Origin: a virus
Length of the DNA: 64,000 nucleotides
IMG/VR virus record: IMGVR_UViG_3300030060_004796
Span: 32,001-96,000 of that record
Reading direction: 5' to 3' (one strand)
In this document: positions 433-5,961 of the stretch, piece after piece
Layout: each line of letters opens with the position of its first letter
Position numbering within the stretch: position 1 is the first letter of the stretch
The notes under the pieces: model-generated
Seen by the model: the letters and a program-made list of their open reading frames with translations, nothing else
Told to the model about the DNA's origin: nothing
Database searches by the model: none
Program-made: the position numbers and the translations under genes

Positions 433-3400
433 ATGAAAGTAAAAATAAAAAAATTACCAAAAGGTTTTTCCATGCATGATGGAAAAGTGTACAAAGACGG
501 GGGTACAACAGGTGATCAATTTAACTATGGTTTAGTGGGAGTTCCTTCAACAGGTTCTTCAAATGCTTCTAATCCATTTAGTTCAGTTAATTATTCTCTA
601 AACCCTGTGCCTAGAGAAGAAGCAAACCTTGAAGCAGAAAAAGGTGAGACAGTATTAACAGATATGAACAATGATGGAAATTTTGAATTATACAACATCA
701 CTGGTAATAGACATAGTAGTGGAGGTACCCCGTTAAACCTACCACCACAATCTTTTATTTATTCTGATACAACTTCAATGAAGTTAGATAAATTTGAGTT
801 AGCAGAAATGGGATTAACTTCTCCAAAAAAAATTACCCCTGCTAAAGTTTCTCAAAACTTTCAATTAAATAATTTTATTGCATTACTAGATGATGATCAC
901 ACTGATAATATAACAAGAGATACTGCAGAGTATATGTTATCAAAAAATAAAAAATCATTATCTCAATTAGCATTTTTACAAGAAGCAAAGAAAAAATTTG
1001 AAGATGGTGTTCCATTAGCTGCATATCCATATCTACAAGAGAAGGGATTAAATCCTTTAGAATTTTCTCAAAAAATTCAAAATATATCACAAAAGGAAGC
1101 AGAGCAACAGATGATGATGCAACTTCCTATTGAGCAACAAATAGAAATTTTAATGGCTAAAAGACAAGCTGCACAACAACAACAAGCTATGCAACAACAA
1201 CAAGCTATGCAGCAGCAAGGTATGGTACCACCAAGTCAAGGTGGTCAAATAGGAATGCAGGGTGAAAACATTCAAGCTGAAGCTATGATGCCTCAACAAG
1301 GAGGTATGCCACCAATGGCACCACCTCAAGGAATGATGCCTCCAATGCCACCTAATATGCAACCTAACATGCAGTCTAATATGCAACCAGCTATGGCTAG
1401 ACGTGGAGGTCAGCTATCTCACCTACTACCAAAAGCTCAAAACGGACTAACAGAATTTACAGCACAAGCTCCAATATATAATGCAGTTGGTGAGTGTGTT
1501 ATGAACTGTAGACAAATAAACGTTCAACCTGTAGCTGATTTTGAAATAGGTGCTGGTATGTCTGCAGGTAAAATAGGTGATGAGTTCACAGGCTCTGGAA
1601 AACTTACATCAGGTTTTTCATTTAATCCTAATATGGGACAAGGTGGTCTTGATGCTTATATTGGTGGTAACATAGGAGGAAGAGCAACATCTGTTAATCA
1701 AGATGATGTTACTTTAAGTCCATTTGCTAATCTAGTAGCACGTGGAGGATATTCTGGTCATTTACCTCCAGTTAATTTTAGAAATAGACAAGGCTTACCT
1801 TTTGGTCTGGGAGCTTTTTATAATAAAAGCTTAATGGGTAATGAAGGTAATGTTTTTGGAGGATACGGTCAGTTAGGTAACTTCAATATTACTGGAGGAT
1901 ATAATTTTGACACTAATAGCCCACAGTTTACTGCTGGTATTGGAATACCTATTAGACAAAAAGGTGGTGAAGATTTTGAACCACATATGATGTATGATCC
2001 AAAATCAGGAAAAGGTTTTATGGCAAACACTTATGAAGATCATTTACGTATGAAAGAAATGGGCTATCTTCATCAAGAAGAAATGAGAAATGGTGGGTCA
2101 TTACCTTCTTATCAAGATACAGGAGAAACTGGTAACTGGGAAGGTGATCTTTCTTTAAACTTTGGTGATACAAATAGACCAACAGTGTTTATGTCAGGAA
2201 GAAATATAACATCAAGTGGAACAGATGGTCAAACTGGATTTGGTGATATGAATGTTGATAAATACCGTGGTTGGAATTTTGGACTTAATCCTAATGCAGA
2301 AGGAAAAATGCCATGGGGTTGGTACGATCATGATACTGATACAAGGTTTACATCAGATATGGATTTAAGTCAGTATACATTTGACAGATCAAATACTAAG
2401 ATGAATTTTGATAGAAGTATGGGTATAAATAAATATTCTACAGATCCAGGAAATAGAAGTAGAATGTATGCAGAAGGTAGACTTGGTGCTGGATGGGGTG
2501 TAGGTAATGTTTGGGATAGAGTATTTCCTAATTCTCCAGATAATAATTTAATGGAGTCAAAACATGTTCATTATTTAAATCCTTATCTAAGTGGTGAGGC
2601 TGGTATAGATATTGGTCTTAATAAGGACAATGAATCATTAGGATTAAAAGGAACATATAATACAGGATGGAGTCCATATGGAAAAGGATTTGGTATAGGT
2701 GCTAATTTTAAATCAGACAACTTTGGAGTTAATATAGGAGTTGATGATCTATTTAGAGGTAATCAACCTCAGTTTGGTATGTCATATAATTTTAGAAAAG
2801 GTGGTCAACCATTGCGTAAAGCACAAGGAGGTATGGATATTAAGTATGATATATATAATAGAAATATGCTTAATAACGTAATACCAGCTGATAAAACAAG
2901 GGTTGCAGTAAAACCTCCTATATTACCTTTAATAAATAATGATCAACCTGTAATAGAACCTGGTACTCAAGGAAGTATTAATAGTCCTATTGTTCAGAAT
3001 ACTGAACAAATTTTGGACAATATGCAATCATCATATGAAAATCAGTTAGCTACTTATCAGGCAAATTATCAGAGTCTTATGAATCAATACCAGACTCAGA
3101 TGAATAGTATGATTCCTCCAGCAAGTCAACAAGCTAGTTTACTTGGAGCAACAAACTACCCTGATGAAAGTAAGATTGCAGTTTGGGAAACTCATATTGA
3201 GAATGGTGGACCACCACCAGAGAATCCAGATATTAATTATACAACAGCGTATAAGAATGTGTATAATAAAGATTTTGAACCTGAAGAAAAAAATGATAGA
3301 TCAAATAGACCTATTAATAATATAACAAATGTATATGATCAACAAGATCCAGATGCAGGAAATCAAAGTCAAGGCCCTCCAGGAATGGGATACCCAGGAA

Positions 3401-5961
3401 CAAACCTTCCTGCAGGAAATAATAATGATGACGGAACTATAGCTGGAAGAGCAAAAGGTTTACCACTTGATTACACAAATACAGATAACCCTTATTATGT
3501 AGGTGCTAATTGGATGTTCCAAAAAGGTGGAGATATAGATTTAGCTATCCAAGTAAAAAAAGACAAAGAACTTTTAGAAAACAGTTCATGGTGGAATGAT
3601 AATATTTGGGGTCCTACAAAAAATTACTGGAATAGAAGTAGTTGGGGTGATATGATAGGTGATGCAGGTGTTGGTATGATGGCAAAAATGATGCCTGCGA
3701 CATTAATTTCAAATTTTCTTCCTAATTATGCATTTAGTCCAACATATAGAGATTATGTAAATCCTATGATTGATGGTATTAAAGATGAGTTTGTAAAAGA
3801 TAAAGGTATAAGTAATTGGGAACTAATTGAAAAGCAAAAAGATTTTCCTGAACAAAAAAGAAGAGGTGGAGGACTACCTAAAGCTCAGTATAACTTTAAT
3901 ATGGATAATGTAGCTGCGTCAGATAGTACATATGTTAATATGCCAACTGTTGGTGCATATAATATACAAACTAAGCCTACATATGAAATAGGACAGAATT
4001 ATGAAGAGTTAGTAAGTGAATATAATCCTCTTGGTACCTATATGGGTGATATGAGTAGTTACAATGCAGGAACAATTGACAGAACTGATAAAGACAAACA
4101 AATGGATAAAATGGCAATGATGAATCCTGTATCAAGTATTGGTGTAGGATTAAATGCTATTTATGATGGATTGTTTGGTAGTCAATATGGAGGATCATTT
4201 GCAGGTGGTGGTGAGCTACCAATAGCTAAAAAAGGTATTGAATACAATGGTAAAACATACAGTAAAAGAGATCTAAAGAAATTAAAAAATAGTAAAGATC
4301 CTGTAAAGATAGATTTGTATAATAAAATCATGGGTATTGATACAAGAAATCAACAAGAAATAGCTAATGACCAAACACAGAACATCAACCAGATGCGTGA
4401 AAATATTGAAGGCTCAACTACTGTAACAGACTTAACAGGTGGTACAGGAGACTGGGGTGCTTGGTATATGCAAGATGGTCAATCTGAATATAGAGATCAA
4501 AGATATGAAGCATATAAAGCTAGACGTGAAAGTAAAGGTCTAGATGTATTAGATCCAGAAGAATTCCATAATGTATATGTAGAGTTCCAAAAACAAAATG
4601 CATGGCTTGAAGCAAATTTAACTCAAGAAGAAAGAAATGAGAAGAATTGGGATCAAAGTAGAACCTATGGTAAAAATAAAAGATACCAAGAATCTTTAGA
4701 CGGTTCAGGATTTACACCTTTATCTGATGACATGATTAGTCATGTTCAATCAGGATATATTGGAGGTGTTGCATTAAATAAAATGAACGAAGATAATCCA
4801 GATGGTAACATCACTAATTATATGCAAAGTGGTGTGGATGATCAAACTGTATTTGGAATGTCTATATCTCCAGAAGATGGTGTATTTGGTAATACAACTA
4901 ATGATCAAAGAGAAAGTATTTATACAGAAGAAGTTGTAGATCCACAACAGTGTGTTAATGCAGAAGCAATGCAAGCTGCTTGTACAGAAATTGGAGGTAC
5001 ATGGACACCATTTAATGAAGAAGATGGAACAGGTTGTAATTGTGATAAGCAAATTCCACCAGACAAGATTCCACCTCCTCCAGAAAAGAAGCAAACACCT
5101 TTCTGGTTACAAGATGAGCTAGGTTTAGCTAATGCAATGGATACTAAGATGAGTCTAAAGAAACGTTATCCTTGGGCTCCAACTTATGATCAACCTCAAA
5201 TTGATGGTGTATTTAAAGATCCAACAAGAGAAATTGCTGCAATTGGTGAACAGGCTGCTATAGCATCTGAAGCTGCAACAGCATTTGGTGGACCAAGGAG
5301 AGCTATGACTGCTGCTCTTGCTGCACAAGGTAAAGCTAGTACAGCAATTGCGGATGCTATAAATAGAGTTCAAAGTGACAATGTTACTATTGCTAATGAT
5401 ATTAATACTAAGAATGCTGAATTTGAATATAAAACTCAAATGTTAAATAACAATGAGTTAAAGCAATTATATGATAATACAGTATTAACTGAAGAGAACT
5501 ATGATAATGCACTTAGAAAAGCTAATGCAAATATTACAGCGCAATTACAGAATGCTTATACTAATAGAGCAAATACAGCTAATCTAAATAGTATTTATCC
5601 TCAGTTTAGAGTAACACCAGAAACAGGTGGTTTTGTTGAAATTACAGATCCTAAAGCATTTTATGCTAATCCTAATGATGCAATAGATCCTGCAACTTAT
5701 GATGAACAATATGTAAAAACTATTGAGATGCTTAGAAAGAATAACGTTCCTGAAGATCAATGGCCAAAGTATAACAACCCTGGTTTAAATAAAACAGGGA
5801 ATACTACTTGGGCTCAACAGAATGCAGGTGCTATCACTAATTCAGGGTATCAAGGAGGAGCTCCAACAGCATCTTACGGTAGAGAAACAAGAAAAAGAAA
5901 CAGAATACTTAAAAAAGGGGGACAATTAAGAAATTGGTTTTCTCCATTAAGGGGTGATTAA
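433..5961 (+). CDS. 1842-aa putative ejected/cargo polyprotein with repeated [K/R]xGG junctions and two beta-barrel-like segments
   Basis: Position just upstream of the vRNAP cluster; N-terminal EAEKGE...G.RHSSGG motif typical of crAss-like cargo proteins; modular composition. Confidence 0.65.
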   Translation: MKVKIKKLPKGFSMHDGKVYKDGGTTGDQFNYGLVGVPSTGSSNASNPFSSVNYSLNPVPREEANLEAEKGETVLTDMNNDGNFELYNITGNRHSSGGTPLNLPPQSFIYSDTTSMKLDKFELAEMGLTSPKKITPAKVSQNFQLNNFIALLDDDHTDNITRDTAEYMLSKNKKSLSQLAFLQEAKKKFEDGVPLAAYPYLQEKGLNPLEFSQKIQNISQKEAEQQMMMQLPIEQQIEILMAKRQAAQQQQAMQQQQAMQQQGMVPPSQGGQIGMQGENIQAEAMMPQQGGMPPMAPPQGMMPPMPPNMQPNMQSNMQPAMARRGGQLSHLLPKAQNGLTEFTAQAPIYNAVGECVMNCRQINVQPVADFEIGAGMSAGKIGDEFTGSGKLTSGFSFNPNMGQGGLDAYIGGNIGGRATSVNQDDVTLSPFANLVARGGYSGHLPPVNFRNRQGLPFGLGAFYNKSLMGNEGNVFGGYGQLGNFNITGGYNFDTNSPQFTAGIGIPIRQKGGEDFEPHMMYDPKSGKGFMANTYEDHLRMKEMGYLHQEEMRNGGSLPSYQDTGETGNWEGDLSLNFGDTNRPTVFMSGRNITSSGTDGQTGFGDMNVDKYRGWNFGLNPNAEGKMPWGWYDHDTDTRFTSDMDLSQYTFDRSNTKMNFDRSMGINKYSTDPGNRSRMYAEGRLGAGWGVGNVWDRVFPNSPDNNLMESKHVHYLNPYLSGEAGIDIGLNKDNESLGLKGTYNTGWSPYGKGFGIGANFKSDNFGVNIGVDDLFRGNQPQFGMSYNFRKGGQPLRKAQGGMDIKYDIYNRNMLNNVIPADKTRVAVKPPILPLINNDQPVIEPGTQGSINSPIVQNTEQILDNMQSSYENQLATYQANYQSLMNQYQTQMNSMIPPASQQASLLGATNYPDESKIAVWETHIENGGPPPENPDINYTTAYKNVYNKDFEPEEKNDRSNRPINNITNVYDQQDPDAGNQSQGPPGMGYPGTNLPAGNNNDDGTIAGRAKGLPLDYTNTDNPYYVGANWMFQKGGDIDLAIQVKKDKELLENSSWWNDNIWGPTKNYWNRSSWGDMIGDAGVGMMAKMMPATLISNFLPNYAFSPTYRDYVNPMIDGIKDEFVKDKGISNWELIEKQKDFPEQKRRGGGLPKAQYNFNMDNVAASDSTYVNMPTVGAYNIQTKPTYEIGQNYEELVSEYNPLGTYMGDMSSYNAGTIDRTDKDKQMDKMAMMNPVSSIGVGLNAIYDGLFGSQYGGSFAGGGELPIAKKGIEYNGKTYSKRDLKKLKNSKDPVKIDLYNKIMGIDTRNQQEIANDQTQNINQMRENIEGSTTVTDLTGGTGDWGAWYMQDGQSEYRDQRYEAYKARRESKGLDVLDPEEFHNVYVEFQKQNAWLEANLTQEERNEKNWDQSRTYGKNKRYQESLDGSGFTPLSDDMISHVQSGYIGGVALNKMNEDNPDGNITNYMQSGVDDQTVFGMSISPEDGVFGNTTNDQRESIYTEEVVDPQQCVNAEAMQAACTEIGGTWTPFNEEDGTGCNCDKQIPPDKIPPPPEKKQTPFWLQDELGLANAMDTKMSLKKRYPWAPTYDQPQIDGVFKDPTREIAAIGEQAAIASEAATAFGGPRRAMTAALAAQGKASTAIADAINRVQSDNVTIANDINTKNAEFEYKTQMLNNNELKQLYDNTVLTEENYDNALRKANANITAQLQNAYTNRANTANLNSIYPQFRVTPETGGFVEITDPKAFYANPNDAIDPATYDEQYVKTIEMLRKNNVPEDQWPKYNNPGLNKTGNTTWAQQNAGAITNSGYQGGAPTASYGRETRKRNRILKKGGQLRNWFSPLRGD
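1105..1395 (+). repeat. Gln/Met/Pro-rich low-complexity coding repeat (QQQQAM x2-3; PNMQ-like x3)
   Basis: caacaacaagctatg tandem units at about 1174-1218 and ccta(a/c)atgca-like units at about 1351-1389. Confidence 0.85.

Follow-up and report, generated by a model that had tools for sequence, protein, structure and literature searches.

The window analysed here is a stretch of 64,000 nucleotides (nt), bases 32001-96000 of the 120,198-base IMG/VR record IMGVR_UViG_3300030060_004796. It contains the gene of P0001, a giant protein encoded in the cargo block of a marine crAss-like phage, in which two Gly- and aromatic-rich segments, hereafter module 1 and module 2, stand in the N-terminal half (Table 1). 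An initial annotation, made from the sequence alone, had taken both segments for outer-membrane-barrel-like domains of an ejected polyprotein, each ending in a beta-signal right before a Gly-Gly (GG) junction. We have computed the boundaries, the conservation and the mobility of the modules, the predicted fold of module 1 and the genomic context of the gene. The modules are separate, swappable units of this presumed ejection cargo protein, bracketed by basic-GG-x-LPKAQ linkers, and may be barrels of the outer-membrane type that would anchor the ejected protein in or at the host outer membrane.

Table 1. Features of P0001. Positions are those of the window, or amino acids (aa) of P0001 where indicated; ORF, open reading frame.
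Feature	Position	Strand	Basis or remark
P0001, cargo-block protein with both modules	433..5961	+	1842-aa ORF
Linker before module 1, A-R-R-G-G-Q-L-S-H-L-L-P-K-A-Q-N-G	1396..1446	+	basic-GG-x-LPKAQ junction
Module 1, conserved all-beta module, predicted meander barrel	1447..1953 (aa 339-507)	+	AlphaFold2, VIA-align, homologues
Module 1, predicted strands	aa 339-350, 368-381, 384-397, 405-421, 425-443, 456-466, 474-481, 484-491, 496-504		AlphaFold2 model
Cys355-x3-Cys359 pair, long first loop of module 1	1495..1509	+	low-confidence part of the model
Module 1, last strand and conserved tail, S-P-Q-F-T-A-G-I-G-I-P-I-R-Q-K-G-G	1918..1968	+	homologue endings
Small His/Met-rich module, E-D-F-E-P-H-M-M-Y-D-P ... 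G-Y-L-H	1969..2091 (aa 513-553)	+	between modules 1 and 2
Second junction, M-R-N-G-G-S-L-P-S-Y-Q-D-T-G	2083..2127	+	
Module 2, conserved Gly/Asn/aromatic-rich module	2128..2793 (aa 566-787)	+	alignments A3 and A7, seven homologues
Module 2, eight alternating runs	aa 572-578, 613-619, 657-662, 683-691, 722-730, 752-760, 763-769, 780-787		run detection
Module 2, last strand Q-F-G-M-S-Y-N-F and junction R-K-G-G-Q-P-L-R-K-A-Q-G-G	2770..2832	+	kept in 7/7

Alternation and terminal strands of the two segments

The strings on which the initial annotation was built are exactly where it had placed them: TAGIGIPI at aa 500-507 (nt 1930-1953), followed by RQKGG, and QFGMSYNF at aa 780-787 (nt 2770-2793), followed by RKGG. 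Segment 1 consists of 18.3% G, 10.1% N and 7.7% F, and segment 2 of 14.9% G and 11.3% N. The strand-like alternation that had been noticed lies above chance, with a two-residue hydrophobic periodicity of z = 4.2 in segment 1 and z = 4.4 in segment 2; the observed value was reached by 0/2000 composition-preserving shuffles. Among 617 windows of 160 aa from all ORFs of the genome, segments 1 and 2 rank first and second in alternation.

The third-highest strand-like alternation in the genome occurs before the window, in the N-terminal 180 aa of a 2042-aa protein (genome 22204-22740). This stretch ends G-G-L-N-I-N-F, followed by Q-D-G-G and a linker, and is a candidate for a third beta module in that style, though a shorter one.

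Both endings fit the polar-x-G-x-x-hydrophobic-x-hydrophobic pattern of the beta-signal, as had been claimed, and the endings themselves recur in homologues. Module 1 ends G-x-G-x-P-[ILF]-[RK]-x-x-G-G in 29 of the 32 homologues with a readable end, and the ending of module 2, [T/Q]FG[A/M][S/T]YxF followed by x-x-GG and an LPKAQ-like linker, is found in 7/7 homologues. The pattern itself is loose: P0001 contains 12 matches to the regular expression, the genome as a whole has 3.4 per 1000 aa, and ~0.6% of shuffled segments carry it at their end, so that, taken alone, it is weak evidence. The two endings count as real because they are conserved across homologues, not because they fit the pattern.

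Family, distribution and mobility of module 1

An exhaustive phmmer search of 1.84 billion representatives yielded ~25 proteins that match aa 331-516 of P0001, at very different positions within proteins of 160 to 1761 aa. All searches together gave more than 30 homologues of module 1, from phages, with position-specific conservation at 30-45% identity and invariant G, P, N and Y columns. A scan of viral contigs with module 1 returned one relative only, and a degenerate DNA pattern search returned one true relative (L028) and one chance match in Aquimarina. No cellular homologue of module 1 was found, the DNA pattern used being a narrow one, and neither module occurs in 50,697 GenBank phage records. 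Modules 1 and 2 constitute two new protein families without a Pfam or PHROG model, and both appear confined to marine crAss-like phages, as far as searched.

The relative found by the DNA pattern lies in contig CBDHFF010000001.1 (120,283 bases), which is labelled as a Rickettsiales metagenome-assembled genome; its module-1 homologue has 36% identity (E 9e-29). This contig is probably the genome of a crAss-like phage binned as a bacterium.

Module 1 moves between cargo genes. In a TARA metagenome orthologue of P0001 (L008:2501-3154, aligned with window 1411-1980), the flanks are near-identical but module 1 has only ~39% identity, which points to a cassette swap in an otherwise conserved gene. 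Protein P0152 carries module 1 in two tandem copies. In the phage of contig L016, modules 1 and 2 (L016:4295-4834 and L016:7699-8379) occupy different cargo genes, of 1052 aa and 1363 aa, and the order of the genes is kept: the LysM/YkuD protein, the two cargo genes, a 1131-aa gene and a 5155-aa gene. Judged by these alignments, module 1 is a conserved, mobile module.

In the neighbourhoods that were read, on contigs long enough to display one, the homologues of module 1 reside in clusters of giant phage genes with LysM, YkuD, PG_binding_1 or ART-PolyVal domains. Upstream of the homologue P0156, at L018:1-3940, lies the gene of a 2289-aa protein with an ART-PolyVal ADP-ribosyltransferase domain and a faint match to PG_binding_1; this ties such cargo blocks to the theme of the polyvalent proteins.

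Predicted fold of module 1

The AlphaFold2 model of module 1, made with a 36-row alignment (A6), is an all-beta meander with a predicted local distance difference test (pLDDT) score of 75.7 and a predicted template modelling (pTM) score of 0.67; the five models score 71-76, and pLDDT exceeds 80 in most strands. Four of the predicted strands are 14-19 residues long, and the strand connections 1-5 alternate between long and short (17, 2, 7, 3 and 12 residues), a pattern that resembles the extracellular loops and periplasmic turns of outer-membrane proteins. The pair of cysteines in the long first loop is kept across the family (C33 of the query is nearly invariant) and would be consistent with a disulfide that forms outside the cytoplasm or with a metal site. 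P0001 has six cysteines in all: this close pair, at aa 355 and 359, and four more that cluster at aa 1507-1537.

A VIA-align search that covered 48,161 representative chains gave mostly small transmembrane barrels as top matches (Z 9.4-11.2): the designed TMB10 (Z 11.2; root mean square deviation (rmsd) 3.1 over 127 residues), OpcA (Z 10.9) and the OprF barrel (Z 10.6; rmsd 2.9 over 114), then KdgM, pOmpT, NspA, PagL and OmpA. BFVD contributed a single significant match, to a homologue from Virus NIOZ-UU157 (E 2e-14, TM 0.80), and PDB sequence searches returned no match of note. The model thus predicts an up-and-down barrel, with a geometry that by itself does not distinguish the membrane kind from the soluble kind.

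Information on which face of the barrel would point outward comes from the statistics of 28 non-redundant homologues rather than from coordinates. Across these sequences, the strands of module 1 follow a strict two-residue alternation. The hydrophobic class consists of Y (18%), L (17%), F (14%), A (14%), I (12%) and V (9%), and is 34% aromatic, with the aromatic columns mostly near the strand ends and the aliphatic ones mid-strand; charged residues occupy 6 of the 1189 cells at these positions. The other class is 30% Gly, with N, T, S and conserved K, R, D, E and H. This Gly/polar face is more conserved than the hydrophobic one (mean entropy 1.45 versus 1.85, p = 0.014), and its side chains are smaller (46 versus 95 cubic Å).

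Module 2

The seven homologues of module 2 (L008, L016/P0005, L020, P0157, P0158 and P0159, alongside the window copy) include some in proteins without module 1. Module 2 is an independent module, because in the phage of L016 it occupies a different cargo gene from module 1. Compared profile to profile, modules 1 and 2 show no real similarity: the match spans just the last 48 columns, junction included, at a probability of 6.6%.

By sequence, the ending of module 2 is a close fit to the classical beta-signal. We considered whether its terminal Phe is a mere junction motif, as [FWY]-x-x-GG recurs elsewhere, and rejected this because the whole last strand is conserved in 7/7. The ESM Atlas contains no model of segment 1 or segment 2; its nearest named clusters to them are attacin and gloverin (0.80-0.83), which are leads at the level of composition only. 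Of the two barrel-like domains of the initial annotation, segment 1 is upheld by the AlphaFold2 meander, the VIA-align matches and the family statistics; for segment 2, what is confirmed is the sequence features and the terminal motif. On the reading proposed below, module 2 would probably be another barrel, similar in general kind to module 1.

Junctions and the small module between

A linker of the form [aromatic or basic]-x-x-G-G-x-L-P-K-A-Q marks the module borders in three consecutive cargo-block proteins, surveyed at window 433-5961 and genome 22204-32429 (the latter comprising the 2042-aa and 1345-aa ORFs, mostly before the window). The basic-GG-x-LPKAQ motif precedes module 1 in most homologues with upstream sequence, the module beginning a few residues later; at many junctions, there is also an aromatic residue three positions upstream of GG. 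The linker could be a processing site or a recombination joint.

Cleavage at IPI/RQKGG and YNF/RKGG, which would expose a free beta-signal, is an assumption and is not supported: in the homologues, the [RK]xxGG tail is conserved as an integral piece of the module, also where the module closes the protein (P0017, P0020). The familiar GG-specific proteases cut after GG, and such a cut would leave the basic tail on the module, not a free ...IPI or ...YNF end. Nor is cleavage needed for a barrel, because OmpA itself has a domain after its barrel. In a comparison with di-glycine-processed viral polyproteins (sites of the adenain, pS273R and PLpro type), what is shown is the motif and its place at the module borders; the tail kept at protein C-termini is compatible with a processing signal but is no proof of one.

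Between modules 1 and 2 lies a small His/Met-rich module. Of the 486 significant matches in the representative library, the majority fall here, among them stand-alone proteins of 57-100 aa; the Methylophilales phage Melnitz is matched as well. In the single-sequence model, no other part has pLDDT 60-75. The conserved His and Met residues of this small module suggest that it may bind metal.

Genomic context of P0001

The muzzle gene, a 2799-aa ORF that matches the Crassvirus family PF25731 (crAss_MUZ) with E 1.3e-26, is located three genes 5' of P0001 and is directly followed by the 2042-aa ORF, which encodes three LysM domains and a YkuD L,D-transpeptidase domain. The ORFs 3' of P0001 measure 1138, 5193 and 1850 aa, the 5193-aa giant being two genes further. 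The P0001 gene is found where a cargo gene is expected, in the block after the muzzle gene and among giant multi-domain genes, and the order of the giant genes is the same in relatives.

In phi-crAss001, the muzzle gene is followed by those of the cargo proteins and the virion RNA polymerase, which are stored in capsid and tail; the cargo is thought to be extruded in a partly unfolded state (PMC10172136). Because its gene follows the muzzle gene, as the cargo genes of phi-crAss001 do, we place P0001 in the cargo block of a crAss-like phage.

P0001 itself matches no Pfam family (E up to 0.1), no PHROG family and no PDB sequence, including the solved crassvirus cargo fragments; the C-terminal 3009 aa of the 5193-aa ORF gave no match in a PDB sequence search either. 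P0001 has no signal peptide: its basic N-terminus is without a hydrophobic stretch, and the modules begin only at aa 339 and 566. There is no hydrophobic helix (the top 19-residue Kyte-Doolittle mean is 1.1), and the modules are therefore the sole membrane-compatible parts of the protein.

Proposed role and its alternatives

We propose, with a probability of roughly 45%, that the modules are outer-membrane-type barrels by which the ejected cargo protein is anchored in or at the outer membrane of the host, beside peptidoglycan-acting modules encoded in the same gene block. Module 1 would be an 8-10-stranded up-and-down barrel of that type. The cargo protein would be stored unfolded or partly folded in the particle and extruded via the tail at infection, and the modules would then fold into or against the host outer membrane, where they would act as membrane anchors that hold the periplasm-acting neighbour modules and the entry complex at the penetration site. 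The logic would be that of OmpA, in which a barrel is joined to a periplasmic domain, and the modules would not be a DNA conduit. The DNA channel envisaged in the initial annotation is not supported, since a monomeric barrel of 8-10 strands is too narrow for double-stranded DNA, as are barrels of the size of OmpA, OmpX or OpcA; its other suggestion, that the modules block superinfection, is pure speculation.

As to the route of insertion, it is conceivable, if rather unlikely as a whole, that the signal-less, unfolded barrel cassettes of the ejected cargo assemble unaided in the outer membrane of the host where it has been punctured, or do so via the host beta-barrel assembly machinery (BAM), given the beta-signal-like last strand, with the [RK]xxGG tail as a processing or targeting signal.

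What speaks for a membrane barrel is the nature of the two faces. A conserved, Gly-rich face of small residues fits the lumen of a narrow barrel, and a variable, Tyr-rich hydrophobic one with aromatics at its ends is what exposure to lipid would lead one to expect; in a soluble barrel, conservation normally runs the other way, with the core conserved and the surface variable. Because the Gly/polar face of module 1 is conserved while the hydrophobic face is variable and Tyr-rich, the family alignment favours the membrane type over the soluble type.

A number of observations weigh against such an anchor. The direction of the hydrophobic face is deduced from the family statistics, and packaging of P0001 in the virion and its ejection from gene order only. 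DSSP counts nine strands in module 1, an odd number and thus at variance with a standard barrel; in the last strand, the Pro at -2 is invariant and the final residue is Ile, not an aromatic one. Soluble barrels come out nearly level with the membrane barrels in VIA-align (2q03, Z 10.0; Rv2717c, 9.1; nitrobindin, 7.7). Foldseek found no match to module 1 in the PDB that reached E 0.001, its rows of highest probability, none of them significant, being the TamA and EspP barrels. The Pfam outer-membrane-protein families gave no match to 11 module-1 members at E up to 1, and OMP_b-brl (PF13505) gave none to the whole genome at E up to 1, while the controls responded. Unlike the small bacterial outer-membrane barrels, to which they have no detectable sequence relation, the phage modules lack a Sec signal peptide. 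As for module 2, its alternating runs are short (6-9 residues) with polar loops between them, and the sole model that covers it, a single-sequence AlphaFold2 prediction of aa 327-795, has a pLDDT of 34.5 and is unusable.

Alternatively, the modules could be soluble beta-barrels of the lipocalin, nitrobindin or DUF3224 kind, periplasmic or in the particle, with the hydrophobic face as their core. We hold this outcome, which the initial annotation would have counted against its own reading, possible, though doubtful, and the roles that such barrels might have, in binding lipid, lipopolysaccharide or peptidoglycan fragments or as compact packing units, are equally tentative. Next to 2q03 and Rv2717c, the soluble barrels RsfG (Z 8.8) and 2ooj (Z 8.5) are among the top structural matches; the two-residue hydrophobic/polar pattern suits a soluble barrel equally, the lack of a Pfam outer-membrane-protein match agrees with one, and a soluble fold sidesteps the storage of a lipid-facing surface in the capsid. 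However, it would put the conserved Gly residues, which make up 30% of their face and hold many of the invariant positions, on the exposed side, more conserved than the supposed core, and it would leave a core class that is one-third aromatic and Tyr-rich, with its aromatics at the strand ends. The four strands of 14-19 residues are, as a matter of general knowledge, long for a soluble barrel, and rmsd is lower for the membrane barrels (2.8-3.1 Å) than for the soluble ones (3.1-4.9 Å).

It is improbable that the modules instead contribute to an oligomeric beta-pore, in which copies of the cargo protein would give hairpins to one large shared outer-membrane barrel, wide enough for proteins or DNA, and the monomer model would be an artefact. 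Such a pore would rescue the channel idea of the initial annotation; the weak Foldseek rows include the Clostridium perfringens beta-toxin pore and Epx4, and phi-crAss001 has 12 copies of its cargo protein C1 (PMC10172136). Against it, the five AlphaFold2 models are similar in confidence for the single chain alone, the strong VIA-align matches are monomeric barrels, and there is no positive sign of self-association. More improbable still, and already disfavoured, is that the modules are compositionally biased, largely disordered Gly/Asn/aromatic-rich spacers whose barrel model and beta-signal likeness are by-products of composition: the Gly/Asn-rich composition, the low single-sequence pLDDT, language-model neighbours that include the Gly-rich insect peptides attacin and gloverin at only 0.80-0.83, and the looseness of the beta-signal pattern would agree with this, but the position-specific conservation among more than 30 homologues, the periodicity (z of about 4 over shuffles of the same composition) and the alignment-based pLDDT above 80 in most strands would not.

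Comparison with known systems

The membrane-barrel reading of module 1 finds its closest parallels in small bacterial outer-membrane barrels, namely the N-terminal domain of OmpA/OprF, NspA, OmpX/Ail, PagL, OpcA and the omptins, which are alike in their long-stranded meander as predicted here (Z 9.4-10.9, rmsd 2.9-4.2 Å), in the two-residue hydrophobic pattern, the strand-end aromatics and the Gly-rich conserved face, and in the polar-x-G-x-x-hydrophobic-x-hydrophobic last strand; as in OmpA, the barrel is accompanied by further domains. Module 1 differs from them in standing in the middle of a protein of 1842 aa, in ending Pro-Ile rather than x-Phe and in its [RK]xxGG tail after the last strand. 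Its proposed route is likewise different, by way of an ejected polypeptide instead of the Sec/Sur/BAM pathway.

Stand-alone phage proteins in BFVD named 'porin domain', 'OMP beta-barrel' or 'cyanophage OMP-like barrel', together with lambda Lom, are weak structural neighbours (probability 0.21-0.87, E 0.25-0.76). Lom is small, stands on its own, has a signal peptide and is produced within the infected or lysogenic cell, whereas the barrel predicted here would be a signal-less cassette within a presumed virion cargo protein.

The podovirus ejectosomes offer a functional likeness: T7 gp14 (which we take to be helical), P22 gp7*/gp20 and N4 gp52 are internal proteins that are expelled before the DNA and engage the outer membrane, and their genes have the same position and the same presumed timing as the cargo gene described here. 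The outer-membrane pore of P22 consists of 36 transmembrane helices (bioRxiv 10.64898/2026.09.03.749273), gp51 and gp52 of N4 are predicted to be elongated helical proteins (PMC13434306), and T7 gp14 forms an outer-membrane channel (PMC13434306; PMC8954989). A beta-barrel component is mentioned in none of the P22, N4 and T7 papers cited here.

P0001 also resembles gp45 and gp46 of phi-crAss001 and the polyvalent proteins in being giant and multi-domain and in being encoded after the muzzle gene or beside virion genes; for these proteins, delivery together with the DNA and perhaps processing have been proposed (PMC10172136; PMC5512222). The homologues of module 1 share the ART-PolyVal, LysM and YkuD domains with the polyvalent-protein theme. 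The cargo of phi-crAss001 differs: by its published description it is alpha-helical, and for gp45 a transmembrane helix is predicted (PMC10172136). The words barrel, porin and outer membrane are absent from the survey of polyvalent proteins (Iyer et al. 2017, PMC5512222). Full-text literature searches aimed at it yielded no description of a barrel cassette in phage cargo, in line with the initial annotation. The fold itself is known; what would be new is a predicted barrel of the outer-membrane type in a signal-less context, inside virion cargo.

The entry machines of P22 and N4 cross the outer membrane with alpha-helices, and beta-barrel cassettes would, if true, be a second way for phages to do so. 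No phage ejectosome would have had a beta-barrel component before, and an outer-membrane protein would here be assembled from outside the Sec pathway, which would raise the question of whether an ejected, unfolded polypeptide enters the membrane unaided or via BAM. Crassviruses, which have to cross the envelope of Bacteroidota, are among the most abundant phages known; in their marine relatives, the modules described here move between cargo genes as cassettes bounded by the GG-LPKAQ linker.

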